Assembly (NCBI GenBank): GCA_022821965.1
Contig: JAJECN010000015.1
Location: 54,785 to 118,784, forward strand
Reading direction: 5' to 3'
Length of the DNA: 64,000 bases
Origin: Candidatus Poribacteria bacterium
Lineage (GTDB): Bacteria; Poribacteria; WGA-4E; WGA-3G
The notes under the pieces: model-generated
Told to the model about the DNA's origin: nothing
Database searches by the model: none
The model's input: only the letters and a program-made list of their open reading frames with translations
Position numbers and translations under genes: made by a program
Shown here: piece by piece, positions 6,931 through 62,812 of the stretch
Position numbering within the stretch: the stretch's first letter is position 1
Layout of the letters: each line of letters opens with the position of its first letter

Positions 6931-8265
6931 ATGAATCACCGAAGTTTCACACACATTGCATACCTTTTCAGTGTTGTAATAGTACTCTTTCTCGTTGCAT
7001 CCGTCCCTTGTATCGCACAGAACGGGACAGCACTCTCTGGTACCGTCCTTGACATGGAAGGGAAGCCGATTGCTGGATTTGCCATTGGGTTGTTACAAGG
7101 GGCTCTAATATCCATGACTGATGAAAAGGGTGCTTTCACTTTCACCAATATCCCCGCCGGACCGGTTCAAATTGCGATTCCAACGCAGCCGTCCAAAGAG
7201 AATGAAGAACCTATGTTCGATTTTGAGGCGGATGATGAAATCCTCTCAATCAAAATCAGGGGTATAACGCTTTATCAAGACACGCGTCCGCCTTTCGGCG
7301 GCATCGAGTTCGGTGTCAAATCGAGCAGCCATATCAAGGATGTAGCGGTTACCGTGCGTCCCCGAACGCGCATTCGGGCGAAAGTTATTTTCAAAGATGG
7401 AAAGCCGCTAACGAACGCCTCTGTTTCCCTGATAGTTGAGGGCAACGGTAGGGCGACCGGAGGAGCTACCACGGATGCCGAGGGATATTTTGTAAGTTAT
7501 TTCGATAAAAACGAGGTCCCAGCACACTACACGGTCTCCGTGAAATATAAAGGACTCTCGGCGAAATCAGAACTATTTCTGCTTGAAGAGGGGGCGCGCT
7601 ATGACGATTTAGTTTTAACGCTCGATGGTAATGTGCCGCCTGCTGCCCCACAAAAGGAATCTCTGCCGAAAGTTTTAGATAAATTGAGTGATGGATTGAC
7701 ACCACCTGAGAAACCGACACTCACCGAAACAGACCGCTCTGTACCAACTAACAAGGGGCAGGTTAATATTCAAGAGGTAGAAGTAAAACCTCGTGTAACA
7801 GGGGCTGAACCTACTAAACCCGTTAGGCAGATGCGACCGCCGTGGGAGAAAGATGCGTGGGCTGTGAACCCTGCAAATGGACACGGTTATAAAAAGATCC
7901 GGTGCGACAGTCTGGATGAGGCGCGAGATCGCGCTGCCGCTCAAGGCGCGTTCCTTCTTGCGATTAACGACGAAGCGGAGCAGAAATGGATTTCGGGATT
8001 CTTTGGGAATCATCTCTATTGGATTGGACTCAGCGATGCTGAAAACGAAGGGGAATGGGTATGGCAGAACGGTGATCCGCTCACCTATACGAATTGGGGA
8101 CCCAAGCACAGTTTCCCGCGGAGTCCGCTTTCACAGGAAAAGAAGGACAGTGCTGTGATGACGTTTGCGAATGGACAGTGGCATGCCGTTGGTCCCGGTG
8201 ACGTGCTCTGGCGTATGACGAAGATGGCAATCCTTGAAAAAGCAGACGTGCTTGATGGAAAATAA
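6931..8265 (+). CDS. secreted CarboxypepD_reg + C-type lectin domain protein (array paralog)
   Basis: SD AAGGAGA precedes a signal peptide. C-terminal CTLD; its 3' end is near-identical to that of the next gene. Confidence 0.85.
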   Translation: MNHRSFTHIAYLFSVVIVLFLVASVPCIAQNGTALSGTVLDMEGKPIAGFAIGLLQGALISMTDEKGAFTFTNIPAGPVQIAIPTQPSKENEEPMFDFEADDEILSIKIRGITLYQDTRPPFGGIEFGVKSSSHIKDVAVTVRPRTRIRAKVIFKDGKPLTNASVSLIVEGNGRATGGATTDAEGYFVSYFDKNEVPAHYTVSVKYKGLSAKSELFLLEEGARYDDLVLTLDGNVPPAAPQKESLPKVLDKLSDGLTPPEKPTLTETDRSVPTNKGQVNIQEVEVKPRVTGAEPTKPVRQMRPPWEKDAWAVNPANGHGYKKIRCDSLDEARDRAAAQGAFLLAINDEAEQKWISGFFGNHLYWIGLSDAENEGEWVWQNGDPLTYTNWGPKHSFPRSPLSQEKKDSAVMTFANGQWHAVGPGDVLWRMTKMAILEKADVLDGK

Positions 8266-35098: not shown

Positions 35099-35132
35099 GT
35101 GATAGATTATCACAAGTTACCAAAAATGTCAA
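35099..35132 (-). promoter_or_regulatory. sigma70-like promoter (TTGACA-17-TAATCT) with overlapping dyad operator GTGATA-GAT-TATCAC for the 34373-35065 gene
   Basis: The minus strand reads TTGACAtttttggtaacttgtgaTAATCT. A perfect 6-bp palindrome spans the -10 hexamer. SD and ATG lie about 35 bp downstream. Confidence 0.45.
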
Positions 35133-35175
35133 TTTAATTTTTCAATTAAAATTAAATTTGAAAAACGTTTATCAG

Positions 35176-35481
35176 TTATTCTATCTCTAACTGATTTTGG
35201 ACACTGGTAACCTTATCGTTCATTGTTTGGGTTCTGTCAATTCGAGTCCCAAATTTGAGTGTCGTTGTGATTCGGGGCGCGCCCATTTCATGGACGACCT
35301 CGTGGCACCGTCGAATTGCCGCAAATACAACGTCCCACTCACCTTCAATATTGGTGCCATAAGCATGCAAATTCGTTTCCAAACCTGCCTCTTTTAGTAC
35401 CTTCTCGCACGCGGTAACGTATTTGGAGACCGATACACCGACACCTATCGGAACAACACAAAGATCCGCGATAACCTTCAT
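35176..35481 (-). CDS. MTH1187/YkoF (UPF0045) family protein
   Basis: 101 aa with N-terminus MKVIADLCVVPIGVGVS. SD GAGGGGG. Confidence 0.6.
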   Translation of the reverse strand: MKVIADLCVVPIGVGVSVSKYVTACEKVLKEAGLETNLHAYGTNIEGEWDVVFAAIRRCHEVVHEMGAPRITTTLKFGTRIDRTQTMNDKVTSVQNQLEIE

Positions 35482-55790: not shown

Positions 55791-55793
55791 TTG

Positions 55794-56210
55794 ATGGACT
55801 ATCTCTTGGATACCTCTACGTGCAGCTTCCTAATGGCACGTGTCCCTTATGTTACTGGTCACTTCGATTCTCTGTCCGACCTCAATGACTACCTCTTTAC
55901 CTGTACGATTGTTAGAGGCGAAATCCTTTTCGGGATTCAGAAACTTCCGATAGGTCGCAGGCGGCAAGTTTTGGAGAATCAAGCAATTAATCTGTTTGAA
56001 GAATTGCCCTGTTTAGCAATCCCGAAGCAGGCTGCTGATTACTATGCCCCAATGAAGAATTACGCCGAACAACAGGGAACCCCATTGTCGGAGAACGACC
56101 TTTGGATAGCCTCTACTGCTGTGGCTCTTGACGCAATTCTCGTCACTACTGACTCAGACTTCCAAAGGATTGCTGAATTCGGATTAAAACTTGAAGATTG
56201 GACAAATTGA
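55794..56210 (+). CDS. vapC: PIN-domain ribonuclease toxin VapC
   Basis: Acidic PIN residues LLDTS...E...D...TTDSDF. 138 aa. Confidence 0.75.
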   Translation: MDYLLDTSTCSFLMARVPYVTGHFDSLSDLNDYLFTCTIVRGEILFGIQKLPIGRRRQVLENQAINLFEELPCLAIPKQAADYYAPMKNYAEQQGTPLSENDLWIASTAVALDAILVTTDSDFQRIAEFGLKLEDWTN

Positions 56211-56311: not shown

Positions 56312-57538
56312 ATGTTTTATCTAACTGTTATTTTCACAGTCTATATCCTATTCTTTTCAATCCAATTGGCTGCAACAGCGCAAAGCGTCAACATCTCTGA
56401 ACCTACCCCTCTACCGGCTGCTGTCCGCAAAACTTTTAACTTAGACCCGTTTTACGAGCAATGGATTGATGTGGAAGGATTGCCTGTTGTCGCATCATCG
56501 AAGGTGGATCCTTATGCTATGAAAGAAGCGGCATGGCTCATTCGGCGGATGATTGGGTATCGTCGGGATGTGTTGCAGGCACTCGCTGAAAATAACGTGC
56601 GTTTTGCTGTGATGGCACATAACGAACTGACAACCCAAATCCCCGAACACAGCGATCTGCAACCCGACTATTATTGGGATCGACGTGCACGCGGTTTGGG
56701 TTCCACGCCAGCGAGACCAGCAGTAAGTTGCGGTGAGGAAAATCTGCTTAACTATTCAGGTGACCCTTATTCCACTGAGAACATTCTGGTACACGAATTC
56801 GCGCATGCGATCCACCAGATGGGGTTGAATACGGTGGATCCCAGTTTTGATAACCGCCTTAAAACACTATATGATGCTGCAGTCGAAAAAGGATTGTGGA
56901 AAGATACCTACGCGATTACAAACCGAGCAGAGTACTGGGCTGAAGGCACACAATCCTGGTTCGATACAAACCGAGCAAACGATGACCAACATAACCATGT
57001 TGATACCCGCGACAAGTTGAAAGAATACGACCCCGCACTCGCGGAACTGTTGACAGAAGTCTTTGGCGATGCGGACTGGCGATACACGCAGGCAATAACC
57101 CGTACGCATCTCGTACATCTCCAAGGGTTCAGTCCTGAAGGATCTCCAGGGTTTGAATGGCCCGCCGAGTTGATAGAATTGACAGAGTTTCACCAACAGT
57201 TAAAGAACCCAGACAGCGATGGTAATGACAAGTGGATAGACTTGAAGGCGCATGATCCAAGTTTGCTTCCAAATCTAAGATCTGGAGACGACGACACGGA
57301 GACCGCAATCCTCTTCGTGAACGGCACAAAAACTGAGATCGCCTACTATTGGGTGGATTATGAAGGTAGTGAGAAATTCTACGGCAAAATTGCTCCAGAT
57401 GCCTTCGTCAATCAACACACATACATAGGGCATATCTGGGTGGTTAAGGGCACAAATGAAGGAAACCTTGCTGTGTTCCGTGCTGAAGAAAAGACTGGAC
57501 GGGCATTTATTGATTTGGAGTTGCTGAATGGTCAATAA
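56312..57538 (+). CDS. secreted zinc metalloprotease-like protein (HEFAHAIH) with C-terminal beta-sandwich domain
   Basis: Signal peptide. HExxH motif LVHEFAHAIHQMG followed by a downstream AEYWAEG. Confidence 0.5.
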   Translation: MFYLTVIFTVYILFFSIQLAATAQSVNISEPTPLPAAVRKTFNLDPFYEQWIDVEGLPVVASSKVDPYAMKEAAWLIRRMIGYRRDVLQALAENNVRFAVMAHNELTTQIPEHSDLQPDYYWDRRARGLGSTPARPAVSCGEENLLNYSGDPYSTENILVHEFAHAIHQMGLNTVDPSFDNRLKTLYDAAVEKGLWKDTYAITNRAEYWAEGTQSWFDTNRANDDQHNHVDTRDKLKEYDPALAELLTEVFGDADWRYTQAITRTHLVHLQGFSPEGSPGFEWPAELIELTEFHQQLKNPDSDGNDKWIDLKAHDPSLLPNLRSGDDDTETAILFVNGTKTEIAYYWVDYEGSEKFYGKIAPDAFVNQHTYIGHIWVVKGTNEGNLAVFRAEEKTGRAFIDLELLNGQ

Positions 57539-57607
57539 GATGTGTGGATTGGTAATATTTTTTACTTTTATCCTTAATCGAAGATTGAATACTTTAGGAA
57601 ACAAATT

Positions 57608-60600
57608 ATGGCAACAGATTATAAAAAGATAGCTGAAGAGCACGAAAAACGATACGGGTGGGATGTAAAGCCTCGTCGTATCTACAAACGGCTTTACAAC
57701 GACAAGACACATTTCGTCTATGAGCTCATTCAGAATGCTGATGATAACGAAAGCCTAAACCTCGAACTGCAGCTAGACAAAAATGAGTTGTTTGTTTGGA
57801 ACGATGGATATCAGTTTAGCGAAGAAGATGTGCGCAACATCTGTTCGCTAGGTTCAAGTAATAAGGATTTGACACAAATTGGTACTTTCGGCATCGGTTT
57901 CAAAGCGGTTTACAACTATACGGATTTTCCGGAAATTTACTCTGGTGCTGAACGTTTTCTTATCCGAGATCTCATCAAACCAGAAAGTATCGCTGAAATG
58001 GATTTTGCGGTTGCAAAACAAGTAGGTAACGGCAAAACAGTCTTTCATTTGCCTTTCAAAGATGGCCTGCGTCAAGAAGATATTGAACGATTGAAAAATC
58101 GACTTCTCAATTTAAACAAGCGAGCTTTACTATTTCTACGTCATCTCGAAATGGTTCACTGGCGTGATGCGCGCGACGCACAGGAAGGTTCTTATTCCTG
58201 TCACCGCCAACCTCATAGTAAAATTCAGAATGCCTCCGAGGTCAAGTTAACTGTGTCGTTGAACGGTGATAATCAACCTTCGGAGACATTCCTCGTTTTT
58301 CGCAAGGAAGTTCAGCCACCACAAGATGTAATTAATCAGTTGTTGCAACAAGAAGAAGATGACGAAGATCGACACCGTATTAAGCGGTCCGCCGAAAAGT
58401 TACAACCTGTTGAAGTTGCATTCAAAGTACAGGATGGTGGAGTAACACCAATAGACGATTGTGTGTTGTTTGCTTATCTTCCAACCCAGAAAGAAACTCA
58501 TCTGCGATTTCTCATTCAGGCGCGCTATCAAACAACGCCTGCCCGTGATAATATTTCAAATGATAATCCATGGAACAAATGGTTAGTGCAAGAAACAGCC
58601 AACTTTCTTCCGGATGTATTGGAACAATTGAAAGCAGGTGGTTTGCTTACTCCTACGTTTTTTAATGTAATGCCTTTGAGAGATGACAATGTACCTGTAG
58701 AGTATGGACCTATCTCCGAGTCATTGGGCAGAGCGATGCGAGATCGGTCGTTCGTTCCTACGCAAAACGGAGGGTATGCAAAAGCAGAACATGTGCTCTA
58801 TCCCCATGCCGAATCTCTGCGGCAATTAATTAAAAGCGATTGGATGCATCCGAATAATTGGTTACATCCTGAGATACGAAATACGAAAGAGTTTCGTCGA
58901 TGTTTTAGGGCTATATGTGAAGCAGGTGTAGAAATAGCGTCTACCGGTCGTGTTTTGCGCTGGCTTGAAAGGAAGACTCCATCCTGGCTTGAAGGCAGAT
59001 GTAGCGAATGGCTATGTTCTTTGTACGTCTATTTGAATAGTCAGAAATCCGAATTGAAGCGAATAAAGAAGCTGCCGTTGGTTCGGCTTGAAAGTGGGAA
59101 GCATGTATGTGCAGACAATCAGTCAGTATTTTTCCCACCAGATCAAGCCGAAGTGCGCGAAGATATGGTTTCTTTCTTCATGGAATTGCCTATTCTTCAA
59201 TCCTCTCTGCTTGCGGGGAACACACGCAACGTCATTGAAACTTTCTTAAAAAGTCTAGGGGTTAGGATGTTGCACCCTGAAGATTTGATTCGTGAATCAA
59301 TTTGTCCCAGGTACCTTCAAACCGAGAAACCTACCGAAGCACAAAACCGTGCGCATGTGCGCTACCTTCGGCATTTTTTATCAAAGGCTTCAAAAGCAGC
59401 GCGTAGCAGTTTGAGTAAAGAAATTAGTAAGATCCCAATTCTGTCGGTTTACAGAGGAAATCAACGAAAACCTCTTGACTTCCTAGAACCTTGCAACGCC
59501 TATCTCTCTCAAGCTTATACAAGTGATACTAGTTTAGAAACCTACTTTTCTGAATGCGGCAACGTTTGGTACGTAGATGATAATTATATAGAAAATGATT
59601 CCGATCGAAAAAAATGGCTCCAGTTTTTTAAATCAATTGATGTTATGGAAACACCACGAGTTATTGAAGAAAACTTAACTATCAGTTCCCAAAACCGTCA
59701 AGAACTTGACAAACGCGGACTTGAGTGGAAAAATAGTAAGAAAGGGTTAATCATTGAAGATCGTCACTTCGATGGTCTGCCGGAAGTGTTGGCTCGAGTT
59801 AGCAATCATAAGGAAATGGATCTTGCACAAGTTCTTTGGCATCTATTAGTTAAAGCACTTCCATCAGGAGAATCGCAACGAGATGCTCTCTTTCAAGGCA
59901 TTTATCGCTGGGGCACTTATAGTTCTCAATTTGAATCCTTTCAGGCTATGTTTTATCGCCAACTGCAGAAGGCAGCATGGCTTCCTGACGAACAAGAGAA
60001 CTTTCGTGTTCCTGCTGAATGTTTCGCACCCACTTCTGAAAACCGTAAGGTTTTAGGGGATAGTGTAGCGTACCTGCACCCAGATTTTGATATTAGTCAA
60101 GACAGCGAAGCTGCACGATGGCTAGCTAGAAAATTGGGGGTACATTTGGACGCAAATATGGATAGTGTACTCAATTACCTTCAAGCCCTGAGCCGCACCG
60201 GAGTGAGTGTTGAACAGGTTAAACCACTCTATTGCTTTCTTGCACAACAAAATTCGTGTCGGAGCGAAGAATTCAAGCAAAAACCGCTTATCTTCACTTC
60301 CAATCCAGAAACAAATTGGTGGAAACTAGATAAAGTATTCTGGGAAGATGAAAATCCAGTTTTCGGTAATCATCGTGGTTACCTTAGAGAGAGTTACGCT
60401 GATAATGAAGCAATACTAAAGCCGTTTTTTATCGCTTTGGGAGTCTCGGAACGCGCTGCACCTTTAGACTATGTCCGTGTTATCCGAGAGGTCACGTCTG
60501 TGGAGCTAGCTGACGACGCAACAGTACGTGAGCGTGTTAAGATTCTTTACGGTCGCTTATGGCAGTCTCTGCAGGAAAGCGGTAACTTGCTAAACAGTGA

Positions 60601-61927
60601 AGAATGGGAAAAAGAGTGGGAACAAACACGCGATGGCAAATGCTGGCTTGGCAAGAATGGAAGCAAATGGGATTTTTACCCTCGGTACGAATTGGTTTGG
60701 AACGATCATCCTCATGTTGCTGGGGTTTTTGAAGGTGAGGTTCCATTTTGGAAATTCGACGGTAGTTTATTAGACCTTGCTAAGCATCTGGAAGTCGAAT
60801 GTTGCTCTCGAGCCGTGATAGAAGTCCAGCCTTGTGGTGTCCAAGAAGAGGATAAGGATTGGTCAGCGAGGGTCCGAGATCTGCGTCCATATATTCATGC
60901 CTTTCTCAATTCACCGAGTTTGTGTGAGTTACAAGAAGATAAATCTGCCCATATTTTAGATTTTTTGTCGGTTCGCTTGGTCGAGAAGTTAGAAACGGCG
61001 TATACATTGAAAAAAGTTTCCTTGATTGATCCAAACGCACCTCAGAGTTTTTTAGATGTGACCGACCAGAAAGTAGTACTCTGGTTGGCATTGGAGGCAG
61101 GTGTAAGTGAATATGCAGAGCTGATCGGTGATGCTTTACAGGGATACTTTGATGTTAGAGATCTAGGGAGATTTGCCGAAGATTTGCTGACAAAAAAACG
61201 AGATCGTGTGCTTTCCCGCTGGCAACAAAAGGGTCTCGAAATAGATATTTGCCTAATGCCAGAAACGGATACTAAAAAAGGTGAAGGAAAACAACCGATA
61301 CCTATTAATGAGGAACTTCCAGCTCAATCTAATGATGAAGATGCTAATTTGGTAAAGGATGAATCTGATACGGGAATCCTAGTAGTCGATGAGATTTCTG
61401 AGCACAGCAGTGGAATGATTAATTCGAGAACAGACGAATCTGGACACCATGAATATACTCCGCGTTCCAGTGGTACAAGTTGGTCGGGTGGGCATTCAAT
61501 AAGTACGTCTAGTGGAAAAAGTAAGGGCAAAGGCCATAGTGGTCACTATGGAAGTGAGGAAAGCGATGAACATCGAGAATTAAAGGAATACCTAGCAGCG
61601 AAAACCTTTGAACTTGGTATCGGATTGAAACTCGTTGAGGTTGAGTATACATTCGGGTCAGGCGATAGAGTGGATATTTTGCTGAAGGATGATTTTGGGA
61701 ATCCTGTAACTGTAGAAGTGGAAATAGGTTTTTCATCCAAAGCCGGAAGATACATCGGGATTTGGCAAGCCATAAAGTATCAGCATCTTGCGGCTGTGGA
61801 ATATGGTTTGCCGTGTGAACAGGTACGTAGTATTCTTGCAGCGCCAGAAATTCCTGAAGACATTAAAAAGAAATGTAAGGAATTGGGAATTGAACCCATT
61901 GAGGTTTCTAATCAGACGAAAGCATAG
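57608..61927 (+). CDS. 1439-aa sacsin/NOV-like GHKL (HATPase_c) ATPase with DUF3883/PD-(D/E)xK-like C-terminal domain
   Basis: N-terminal Bergerat N-box ELIQNADDN and G-box GTFGIGFKAVY. Low-complexity S/G/H/K linker. C-terminal GDRVDILLKD...VTVEVEIG beta-strand motif. Confidence 0.65.
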   Translation: MATDYKKIAEEHEKRYGWDVKPRRIYKRLYNDKTHFVYELIQNADDNESLNLELQLDKNELFVWNDGYQFSEEDVRNICSLGSSNKDLTQIGTFGIGFKAVYNYTDFPEIYSGAERFLIRDLIKPESIAEMDFAVAKQVGNGKTVFHLPFKDGLRQEDIERLKNRLLNLNKRALLFLRHLEMVHWRDARDAQEGSYSCHRQPHSKIQNASEVKLTVSLNGDNQPSETFLVFRKEVQPPQDVINQLLQQEEDDEDRHRIKRSAEKLQPVEVAFKVQDGGVTPIDDCVLFAYLPTQKETHLRFLIQARYQTTPARDNISNDNPWNKWLVQETANFLPDVLEQLKAGGLLTPTFFNVMPLRDDNVPVEYGPISESLGRAMRDRSFVPTQNGGYAKAEHVLYPHAESLRQLIKSDWMHPNNWLHPEIRNTKEFRRCFRAICEAGVEIASTGRVLRWLERKTPSWLEGRCSEWLCSLYVYLNSQKSELKRIKKLPLVRLESGKHVCADNQSVFFPPDQAEVREDMVSFFMELPILQSSLLAGNTRNVIETFLKSLGVRMLHPEDLIRESICPRYLQTEKPTEAQNRAHVRYLRHFLSKASKAARSSLSKEISKIPILSVYRGNQRKPLDFLEPCNAYLSQAYTSDTSLETYFSECGNVWYVDDNYIENDSDRKKWLQFFKSIDVMETPRVIEENLTISSQNRQELDKRGLEWKNSKKGLIIEDRHFDGLPEVLARVSNHKEMDLAQVLWHLLVKALPSGESQRDALFQGIYRWGTYSSQFESFQAMFYRQLQKAAWLPDEQENFRVPAECFAPTSENRKVLGDSVAYLHPDFDISQDSEAARWLARKLGVHLDANMDSVLNYLQALSRTGVSVEQVKPLYCFLAQQNSCRSEEFKQKPLIFTSNPETNWWKLDKVFWEDENPVFGNHRGYLRESYADNEAILKPFFIALGVSERAAPLDYVRVIREVTSVELADDATVRERVKILYGRLWQSLQESGNLLNSEEWEKEWEQTRDGKCWLGKNGSKWDFYPRYELVWNDHPHVAGVFEGEVPFWKFDGSLLDLAKHLEVECCSRAVIEVQPCGVQEEDKDWSARVRDLRPYIHAFLNSPSLCELQEDKSAHILDFLSVRLVEKLETAYTLKKVSLIDPNAPQSFLDVTDQKVVLWLALEAGVSEYAELIGDALQGYFDVRDLGRFAEDLLTKKRDRVLSRWQQKGLEIDICLMPETDTKKGEGKQPIPINEELPAQSNDEDANLVKDESDTGILVVDEISEHSSGMINSRTDESGHHEYTPRSSGTSWSGGHSISTSSGKSKGKGHSGHYGSEESDEHRELKEYLAAKTFELGIGLKLVEVEYTFGSGDRVDILLKDDFGNPVTVEVEIGFSSKAGRYIGIWQAIKYQHLAAVEYGLPCEQVRSILAAPEIPEDIKKKCKELGIEPIEVSNQTKA

Positions 61928-62172
61928 GTGTCAATTTAAAGATTTTCGCCAGTGTTTTATAGACCATCTATATAAACATGCCGCCCTTACAGGGCTGAAG
62001 CGTTATAAACTGATGCTGCTATAAACATACCGTCCCCACGGGACTGAAGAGGTTTTTTGAAGCCTTCAAGGTTTCCGCGTAAATCCAGTTCGGTTAGGAA
62101 ACCAAACCTACCGGATCTGAGGAGCGAGACGATTGTTTTTTTAAATTGACATGTATGGTTTCTAATCAGACG
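61903..62172. repeat. structured intergenic element: 16-bp direct repeats flanking 12-bp terminal inverted repeats and two tandem hairpin-containing ~33-nt repeats
   Basis: GGTTTCTAATCAGACG occurs at 61903-61918 and 62157-62172. TGTCAATTTAAA at 61929-61940 is mirrored by TTTAAATTGACA at 62140-62151. Two internal hairpin repeats, ATAAACATGCCGCCCttacaGGGCTGAAG and ATAAACATACCGTCCCcacGGGACTGAAG, lie between them. Confidence 0.5.
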
Positions 62173-62182
62173 GAAAATACAG

Positions 62183-62812
62183 ATGGATGAAGTCGTCCAG
62201 AAGGTTACTGCGTTTATCGTGCGTGAAAGGGGTCGTGTCAAGGAATTACTTGTCTTTAAACATCCAACTGCCGGTATCCAAATTCCCGCAGGTACTGTTG
62301 AAAAGGGCGAAGATATTGAAACTGCTGTAAAGAGAGAGGCTTATGAAGAAACAGGCTTACAGTTTGTGGAAATCGAAGATTATCTGGGTTGTTTTGAGAA
62401 CGAATTGGAATGCAACCAAAGAATAATAGCGGAAACAACGCAGGTTTATATCGAACCCAACTTAAAGGCGATTCCCTACAAGCGAAAACTACCCAAAGGA
62501 CTTACCGTTGGTTACCATTCCACACAAGAGGATTTCACACACATTTCGTACATTGAGTATGAATATGACCAATTTTACGAGCCGATCTGCATTGACGCTA
62601 ATATCACTGGGTGGGTACCGAATGAAAACCTAAGTGCCCAGAAGAAAAGACATTTTTTCCTACTAACAACGCAAGAAGAAACGGCGGACGCGTGGGAATT
62701 AAAGAGCGATCAAGGACACATTTTCAAGCCGTACTGGACACCGCTTTCGCCGAAACCCCAAATTATACCGCCACAAGACAAGTGGTTGGATTTTGTCTAC
62801 GAGAGAATCTGA
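62183..62812 (+). CDS. Nudix hydrolase with C-terminal extension
   Basis: Nudix box GTVEKGEDIETAVKREAYEETGL. Confidence 0.75.
   Translation: MDEVVQKVTAFIVRERGRVKELLVFKHPTAGIQIPAGTVEKGEDIETAVKREAYEETGLQFVEIEDYLGCFENELECNQRIIAETTQVYIEPNLKAIPYKRKLPKGLTVGYHSTQEDFTHISYIEYEYDQFYEPICIDANITGWVPNENLSAQKKRHFFLLTTQEETADAWELKSDQGHIFKPYWTPLSPKPQIIPPQDKWLDFVYERI

Follow-up and report, generated by a model that had tools for sequence, protein, structure and literature searches.

Introduction

[quoted passage not shown] Prokaryotic MITEs such as Correia/NEMIS, ERIC, RUP and MITEAba12 are shorter than 500 bp, carry terminal inverted repeats, are flanked by target repeats, lack a transposase, occur in many copies, fold strongly, and are located at gene ends and between genes; their transcripts form stable structures (reviewed in PMC10969869). 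Longer direct target repeats, of 16-17 bp, are described for the ISTde1 subgroup of the IS1202 family of insertion sequences (ISs), which is documented by 67 examples, is spread over many phyla and has ends starting with 5'-TGT (Siguier, Rousseau and Chandler, bioRxiv 10.1101/2022.12.17.520857). Here we analyze a 64-kb stretch of contig JAJECN010000015.1 from a Candidatus Poribacteria bacterium (the whole stretch, 64,000 nucleotides, is called the window), in which a 237-bp element separates a GHKL ATPase gene of the TmtA type from a Nudix hydrolase gene. We are highly confident that this element, at 61922-62158, is one copy of a MITE family of Poribacteria, inserted at the junction between the 3' end of TmtA and the Nudix gene with a 17-nt target duplication.

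The element shares with the prokaryotic MITEs every trait listed above, from size, terminal inverted repeats and flanking repeats to the missing transposase, copy number, strong folding and position. The Poribacteria family differs from the classic MITEs in its longer duplication (16-18 nt), in its palindromic GG-N17-CC target, which is often a hairpin resembling repetitive extragenic palindromic (REP) sequences, and in a modular cargo of units that are also found alone. Like casposon-derived MITEs, it combines long target duplications with terminal inverted repeats, but its duplications have a mode of 17 and a range of 16-18 nt, and no Cas1-like gene was seen near any copy. As for REP sequences and bacterial interspersed mosaic elements (BIMEs), the element contains short G+C-rich palindromes and its family often inserts into them; however, REP and BIME have neither terminal inverted repeats nor target duplications, whereas the element has both, and only its internal units are REP-like. 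A RAYT-type gene was not seen either, although no search aimed at one was made.

The Interrupted Junction and Its Empty Site

The window contains exactly two copies of the 16-bp sequence GGTTTCTAATCAGACG, one at 61903-61918 and one at 62157-62172, where 0.08 occurrences are expected even with two mismatches allowed, and none of 100 shuffles reached two. The first copy falls within the 3'-terminal codons of a 1439-aa open reading frame (ORF), and the second ends 10 nt 5' of the Nudix ATG. If translation is continued through the second copy, ...VSNQTENTDG is obtained, and the next codon, TGA, forms the overlap ATGGATGA with the Nudix ATG. The initial annotation, made from the window alone, had noted both the repeat and the read-through, and had proposed that an ancestral overlapping GHKL-Nudix junction was split by an insertion. 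Both observations are present as described, and the uninterrupted junction exists in a related Poribacteria contig, L004 (L numbers denote the loci compared), which carries GAGGTTTCTAATCAGACGGAGGATCCAGATGAGTGA at 6975-7008, with the same 16-mer. There the TmtA 3' end is ...IEVSNQTEDPDE, and in the contiguous sequence ...ATTGAGGTTTCTAATCAGACGGAGGATCCAGATGAGTGA the TmtA stop overlaps the Nudix ATG by 8 bp (ATGAGTGA). Aligned at this point, L004 reads ...GGGAATTGAGCCAATTGAGGTTTCTAATCAGACGGAGGATCCAGATGAGTGAAGTTGTCC and the window reads ...GGGAATTGAACCCATTGAGGTTTCTAATCAGACG, then 254 nt, then GAAAATACAGATGGATGAAGTCGTCC. Without these 254 nt, the window has the architecture of L004 with its 8-nt overlap, and the ancestral overlapping junction proposed in the initial annotation is therefore correct; the empty junction reconstructed for the window site is GAGGTTTCTAATCAGACGGAAAATACAGATGGATGA. 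The codons with which the GHKL gene originally ended (...SNQTENTDG and the stop) persist as an orphan in 62159-62175 and 62176-62190, and the former overlap between the GHKL stop and the Nudix start occupies the 8 nt at 62183-62190. A comparison of orthologous loci, which the initial annotation had suggested, thus yields the uninterrupted overlap in L004; a family profile search further found the element family absent from L001, L002 and L004-L009.

Another reading would hold that the region is a lineage-specific intergenic spacer in which the repeats arose by chance, or that the compact junction of the L004 type was produced by deletion between the repeats, and the exact compact junction is indeed known from one relative only. 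Against this stand the low expected count of the 16-mer in the window, the membership of the sequence in a dispersed family (profile E=1.2e-53), and the recurrence in independent elements of the same architecture of terminal inverted repeats and a 17-nt duplication, so that a plain spacer is refuted and this reading as a whole is, in our view, extremely improbable.

The limits initially considered for the insert were about 61929-62151, with terminal inverted repeats of 12 bp. These repeats are present (TGTCAATTTAAA at 61929-61940, with its reverse complement at 62140-62151), but the inverted repeat of the window extends beyond 12 nt (23 nt at 87%), and the family consensus gives ends of 19 nt and sets the limits at 61922-62158 (table 1). 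The two 19-nt ends of the window copy are complementary at 16 of 19 positions, with three mismatches. An element of 245 bp (61918-62162) with a 9-bp duplication, as could be read from the 23-nt inverted repeat, was ruled out by the family termini CC...GG. The 16-bp repeat was likewise a correct observation, whereas the unit that was duplicated is 17 nt long, its two copies being identical at 16 of 17 positions. The 16-mer is explained as the GG of the target plus the first 14 nt of the 17-nt duplication; the GG that opens it is target sequence in the left copy and the element's own terminal GG in the right copy. The element contains stop codons in all six frames, and its longest open stretch is 57 codons.

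A Dispersed Family with Shared Ends

Copies were sought in one genome per species with the pattern common to both ends, CATASRTGTCAATTTAAARA; the source genome of the window is apparently outside this set. The scan returned 39 loci. Named Candidatus Poribacteria genomes, 19 in number, account for about 30 of these, with at most 4 loci in any one genome. Two others come from one further metagenome-assembled genome, which also has strong full-length matches, and the remainder are single chance matches in unrelated taxa. According to blastn, MAFFT and nhmmer, homology spans the whole element and not the ends alone. An nhmmer profile was built from nine copies from other genomes, leaving the window out and including 25-nt flanks so that the data would set the boundaries; its match in the window covers 61910-62168 (E=1.2e-53), and the posterior probability is high between about 61922 and 62158. 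In the fetched loci, this profile matched 98 times, in full or in part, with further copies inside loci among these matches. In addition, a Logan contig from run SRR16351678, which is an independent assembly, is 100% identical across the left junction and breaks off within the element, at position 61999 of the window, as is usual for contigs at repeats.

In 19 paired elements, both termini show the consensus ends of the family, 5'-CCATAGGTGTCAATTTA...TAAATTGACACCTATGG-3'. The length of family members varies between 143 and about 500 bp, the short ones being simple long hairpins. In the window's type (233-263 bp), a left subterminal segment is followed by one to three hairpin units (TATAAACAT-CCG-stem-TAC-stem-CTGAAG), and then by a conserved 3' block of about 130 nt with the palindrome GGTTCGGTT-AGGA-AACCGAACC, after which come a run of T and the right end. 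Small tandem arrays also occur within some copies; in L038, for instance, three 44-nt units are arranged in this way.

Several candidate copies were rejected. At 35120-35450 of the window, end-like matches with 3-4 mismatches lie in an AT-rich promoter-like stretch and coding DNA. A metagenome scan with TGTCAATTTAAA-N(185-215)-TTTAAATTGACA gave one match, a chance match in the AT-rich unrelated contig L006, and a viral contig scan with the 17-nt end gave two matches, neither of which fits the family profile.

The window element is thus shorter than 500 bp, has no transposase gene, possesses terminal inverted repeats, a target duplication and dispersed copies, and has an empty counterpart. A MITE-like insertion was among the interpretations first offered for it, and this one is borne out by all structural hallmarks of MITEs and by a multi-copy family in other Poribacteria genomes. 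A literature search found no paper describing MITEs in Poribacteria, and the evidence supports a new, undescribed family of this known kind of element, seen in Candidatus Poribacteria only.

Insertion into Palindromic Targets

A flanking duplication of 16-18 nt (mode 17, at least 70% identity) was detected in 12 of the 19 two-ended elements and is perfect in four. As a control, left and right flanks of different elements share on average 4.9 of 17 positions; at least 12 matches were reached in 5 of 342 pairs, all of them with similar hairpin targets. The duplication is preceded by GG in 11 of the 12 cases and followed by CC in 8 of the 12, which defines a palindromic target GG-N17-CC. Several targets are a REP-like hairpin of 21-22 nt, GGTGCGGTT-loop-AACCGCACC, a frequent insertion target of the family, and its use as a target accounts for nested and head-to-tail copies that lie exactly 17-18 nt apart (L032 and L043). 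The terminal CC/GG can be assigned to the element rather than to the duplication, since in the window, L018, L020, L037 and L041 the two bases after the right duplication are not the same as the first two bases of the element; the empty site in L004 leads to the same conclusion.

The duplications also bear on the proposal, likewise made in the initial annotation, of a recombination site. In this reading the 16-bp repeats are attL and attR attachment (att) cores and the 240 bp are either what is left of a larger integrated element or a site of recombination; a perfect 16-bp repeat does exceed most transposon target duplications, and genes have been gained and lost frequently in the surrounding region. 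However, copies are found at numerous unrelated positions, where the duplicated target is a different 16-18-nt sequence per site, hence there is no common att core. What is conserved is the inverted termini, not the repeats. No integrase is found nearby, and copies elsewhere can be aligned with the 237 bp over their full length, as a complete unit would and a remnant would not. The variable duplications thus contradict an att site, which we regard as very improbable.

The 21-22-nt REP-like palindrome (GGnnCGGTT-loop-AACCGnnCC) is itself dispersed in Poribacteria genomes, with 31 occurrences in about 430 kb of fetched DNA (among others at L012 1983, L017 1540, L035 2300, six sites in L036, and L038 4465-4596). 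It occurs alone, inside MITEs, and as the three 44-nt tandem units in L038.

Structured Cargo

The two hairpin units of the window copy are 80% identical and start 49 nt apart, and their stems, CCCT/AGGG and TCCC/GGGA, are two double (compensatory) changes apart. Two tandem hairpins of about 33 nt had been annotated at this place; the hairpins and the compensatory change are confirmed, whereas the units are not 33-nt repeats joined head to tail. On the plus strand the element folds with -81.6 kcal/mol (z=-6.2 versus shuffles), and on the minus strand with z=-4.2; pairing between the two ends contributes much of the fold energy. When eight copies were folded jointly with RNAalifold, the stems of both hairpin units and the internal palindrome were retained, and six pairs change on both sides. 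In 4 of the 8 copies, two pairs of the internal palindrome (columns 211-232) have both partners altered. The two strongest double-changed pairs split two subfamilies (TTCGGTT versus GCGCGGTT), and because of this coincidence the double changes may reflect few events. The internal palindrome has the GG-N17/18-CC shape of the preferred insertion target and is slightly decayed in the window copy.

These structures raise the question of whether the element is primarily a structured RNA gene or a cis-regulatory RNA (a small RNA, an antitoxin RNA or an attenuator) with the hairpins as its functional core; a small structured RNA, such as a regulatory or antitoxin RNA, was among the initial suggestions. 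The plus-strand fold, the stem pairs that stay paired through two-sided changes, and the stable structures formed by transcripts of prokaryotic MITEs (PMC10969869) speak for such a role. On the other hand, Rfam gave no match inside 61903-62182 even at E up to 10, and no promoter-like site and no plus-strand terminator-like site were detected in a scan of 61700-62400. Much of the fold energy stems from the terminal repeats, and the double changes, besides splitting two subfamilies, would preserve a DNA hairpin or a target site equally well. Finally, what argues against a dedicated RNA locus is that this is a dispersed repeat with terminal inverted repeats; its copies are found in either orientation at numerous unrelated positions, every one flanked by a target duplication of its own. 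What speaks for an RNA is foldability and a few compensatory changes, and an RNA role may be a secondary property of the MITE; a primarily RNA function is, in our judgment, improbable.

Two further candidate functions were rejected. The right terminal repeat contains TTGACA, a perfect -35 hexamer of an outward promoter, but the sole -10-like hexamer (TCTAAT) is 9 nt away, and the scan was negative. The 57-codon frame (window 61990-62160, minus strand) contains the motif LTELDLRGNLEG, which looks like a leucine-rich repeat; compared with 1.84 billion representatives, it gave only short weak matches to unrelated large multi-repeat proteins (best E=2.7e-7), and it was judged a chance resemblance and not a gene. 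No other copies of the element were found as spuriously called proteins when this frame was used as a query.

Hairpin units of the window type are also present in L046 (3630-3830), where four of them (e.g., CTATAAACATATCGTCCCTACGGGACTAAGG), two per orientation, have no terminal inverted repeats nearby. The hairpin unit would seem to be an independent small repeat captured by the MITE.

Genomic Surroundings

Table 1. Features of the TmtA-Nudix junction in the window, with the basis for each assignment
Feature	Position	Strand	Basis
TmtA-like gene (GHKL/sacsin-type ATPase, C-terminal NucS-like nuclease domain, 1439 aa)	57608-61927	+	ORF, Pfam, PADLOC
GG of target, directly 5' of left duplication	61903-61904	+	
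Left 17-nt target-site duplication, TTTCTAATCAGACGAAA	61905-61921	+	16/17 versus right copy; uninterrupted target in L004
MITE, 237 bp, non-autonomous, without coding capacity	61922-62158	+	nhmmer profile, alignments
Left terminal inverted repeat, GCATAGGTGTCAATTTAAA (family consensus CCATAGGTGTCAATTTA)	61922-61940	+	
Hairpin unit 1, TATAAACATGCCGCCCTTACAGGGCTGAAG, stem CCCT/AGGG	61971-62000	+	Stem kept by compensatory family changes (alignment columns 84-94)
Hairpin unit 2, TATAAACATACCGTCCCCACGGGACTGAAG, stem TCCC/GGGA	62020-62049	+	Family alignment columns 156-166
Internal REP-like palindrome, AGTTCGGTTAGGAAACCAAACC (family form GGTTCGGTT-loop-AACCGAACC)	62087-62108	+	Columns 211-232
Right terminal inverted repeat, TTTAAATTGACATGTATGG (family consensus TAAATTGACACCTATGG)	62140-62158	+	
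Right 17-nt target-site duplication, TTTCTAATCAGACGGAA	62159-62175	+	
Nudix hydrolase gene, 209 aa, conserved core gene	62183-62812	+	Pfam NUDIX E=2.2e-12

The 1439-aa protein has an N-terminal sacsin/GHKL ATPase match (SACS, E=1e-16) and a C-terminal NucS_C match (E=2.9e-5) in Pfam, and its best hit to the PADLOC models of TmtA from the Tiamat system covers residues 25-1099 (E=4.4e-111). The GHKL gene thus matches TmtA of this anti-phage system, itself a variable island, and a defence role is predicted from its sequence. The relatives of this protein in Poribacteria have identities of only about 55-60%, and this low identity indicates that TmtA evolves much faster than the Nudix protein: among 901 Nudix homologues, the best 120 are 85-100% identical, and the named ones belong to Candidatus Poribacteria (sponge symbionts). 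An exact look-up of the window Nudix protein returned no record.

The last sense codon of TmtA, GCA, and its stop TAG (61925-61927) now come from the first 6 nt of the element, GCATAG. The C-terminus has changed from ...SNQTENTDG to ...SNQTKA, so that the last five codons (ENTDG) became KA and a stop. The Nudix start has lost the 8-nt overlap; several hairpins now precede it, and the TmtA stop lies 255 nt upstream.

The ancestral overlap between the two genes, which had been described as translational coupling, is real, whereas a functional pairing of the GHKL and Nudix genes is not indicated. In the close relatives L001 and L002 there is no TmtA-type gene, and the Nudix start shares 4 nt (GTGA) with a 411-aa VHL-domain gene that is orthologous to window 56312-57538. 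Nudix is a core gene that overlaps or abuts whichever gene lies upstream, and its coupling with the GHKL gene is incidental. It follows from the architecture of L001 and L002 that two core genes of the window flank an accessory insertion, which extends from about 57.5 kb to 62.18 kb.

What occupies the slot between the VHL-domain and Nudix genes (57513-62182 in the window) is variable: it holds a TmtA-type gene, about 55-77% identical between genomes, in the window, L004, L005, L007, L008/L009 and L051, is empty in L001 and L002, and in L052 contains an IS605 OrfB/TnpB gene with a truncated VHL 3' end and a 120-bp spacer. A HindVP-type restriction enzyme and a DNA methylase lie upstream of the VHL-domain gene in L008/L009 (2616-4680), and an AAA_15/AAA_21 ATPase and a small gene lie downstream of Nudix in L001 (6711-8326), L002 (6711-8311) and L052 (2273-3642). 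Together, the variable slots around the VHL-domain and Nudix core genes look like a small defence-gene hot spot. The TmtA closest to that of the window (77% identity; L008 9087-9205 and the end of L009) is only 1028 aa long, and no more than about 120 nt separate its stop from the end of either contig, which suggests an interruption by another repeat or IS. The VHL-domain gene of the window (56312-57538) encodes a 408-aa protein with a VHL beta-domain match (E=8e-7), a eukaryote-like domain here in a sponge symbiont, and weak metallopeptidase-like matches (ATLF, M90). It is directly preceded by a PIN-domain (VapC-like) gene at 55791-56210.

Discussion

How might the element have reached this site? 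A transposase supplied in trans would have inserted it into the 3' end of TmtA at GG-TTTCTAATCAGACGGAA-AA, with cuts staggered by 17 bp, and repair of the gaps would have left the 17 bp duplicated on both sides. The insertion put KA and an element-derived stop in place of the last five codons of TmtA, and shifted the Nudix start from the 8-bp overlap to a position 255 bp downstream, ending translational coupling; it may also have affected the expression of Nudix or TmtA. Mobilization in trans is assumed here as no autonomous copy was found. Considering the three mismatches between its ends and the one in its duplication, the window copy is not a very recent insertion but probably an old one, and it may no longer be mobile.

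Our best guess for the enzyme would be a DDE transposase like that of the ISTde1 subgroup, which is the only bacterial IS group we found documented with repeats of this length (here mode 17, range 16-18). The repeat classes of the IS1202 family (5-6, 16-17 and 27-28 bp) would fit cuts that are whole helical turns apart, and 17 bp would be the middle class.

Several points weigh against the interpretation as a transposed MITE of this kind. First, seven of the 19 paired elements have no clear duplication, for which nested insertions or recombination between copies could be responsible. Second, the 64-kb window, the part of the source genome that was scanned, holds one copy only. Third, the exact type of empty site is present in a single relative, L004, the TmtA 3' end of other relatives being different; in L005, L007 and L051, TmtA ends with EVSD, EVPD or ERSD, followed by a native ribosome-binding site and the GTG start of Nudix. 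Fourth, no transposase was found between or beside family ends within the 39 loci captured by the end pattern. When ORFs of at least 150 aa in these loci were clustered and the neighbours of single ends inspected, they appeared, by reading of the sequences, to be of housekeeping type (those beside ends include an aldo-keto reductase, HsdM, a Hen1-like protein, a sigma-factor fusion and a LamG-like protein), and the sole transposase is an IS3-type OrfB in L028 without matching ends. Fifth, the link to ISTde1 consists of repeat length alone: the ends of the Poribacteria family open with CCATAGGTGTC, with CC first and TGT at positions 8-10, and Poribacteria are absent from the phyla that the section consulted lists for the subgroup. 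As one defining feature, the 5'-TGT ends, does not hold, membership in ISTde1 is not established.

These points leave some room for a mover of an undescribed kind, either a new IS family or a host activity recognizing REP-like hairpins, that cuts at GG-N17-CC with a 17-bp stagger, the hairpins being functional cargo of the element. We consider this combination rather unlikely. If it were true, the covarying hairpin cargo would serve, for example, RNA processing, attenuation or the seeding of target sites for further insertions, and Poribacteria would possess a specific system joining REP-like repeats and transposition.

Taken as a MITE, the element defines a new dispersed repeat family in an uncultivated, ecologically dominant phylum of sponge symbionts, and the traits that set the family apart are the 17-bp duplication, the hairpin-shaped palindromic target and a transposase that was not found. 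A 17-bp duplication and a palindromic GG-N17-CC target are rare, and they point to a hardly studied (ISTde1-like) or unknown class of transposase. For metagenomics, repeats of this family break assemblies, as the Logan contig illustrates, and can be mistaken for regulatory RNAs. Locally, the C-terminus of a Tiamat protein has been rewritten and a conserved Nudix gene uncoupled from upstream translation, which makes this junction a natural experiment on operon architecture in a defence-gene hot spot.

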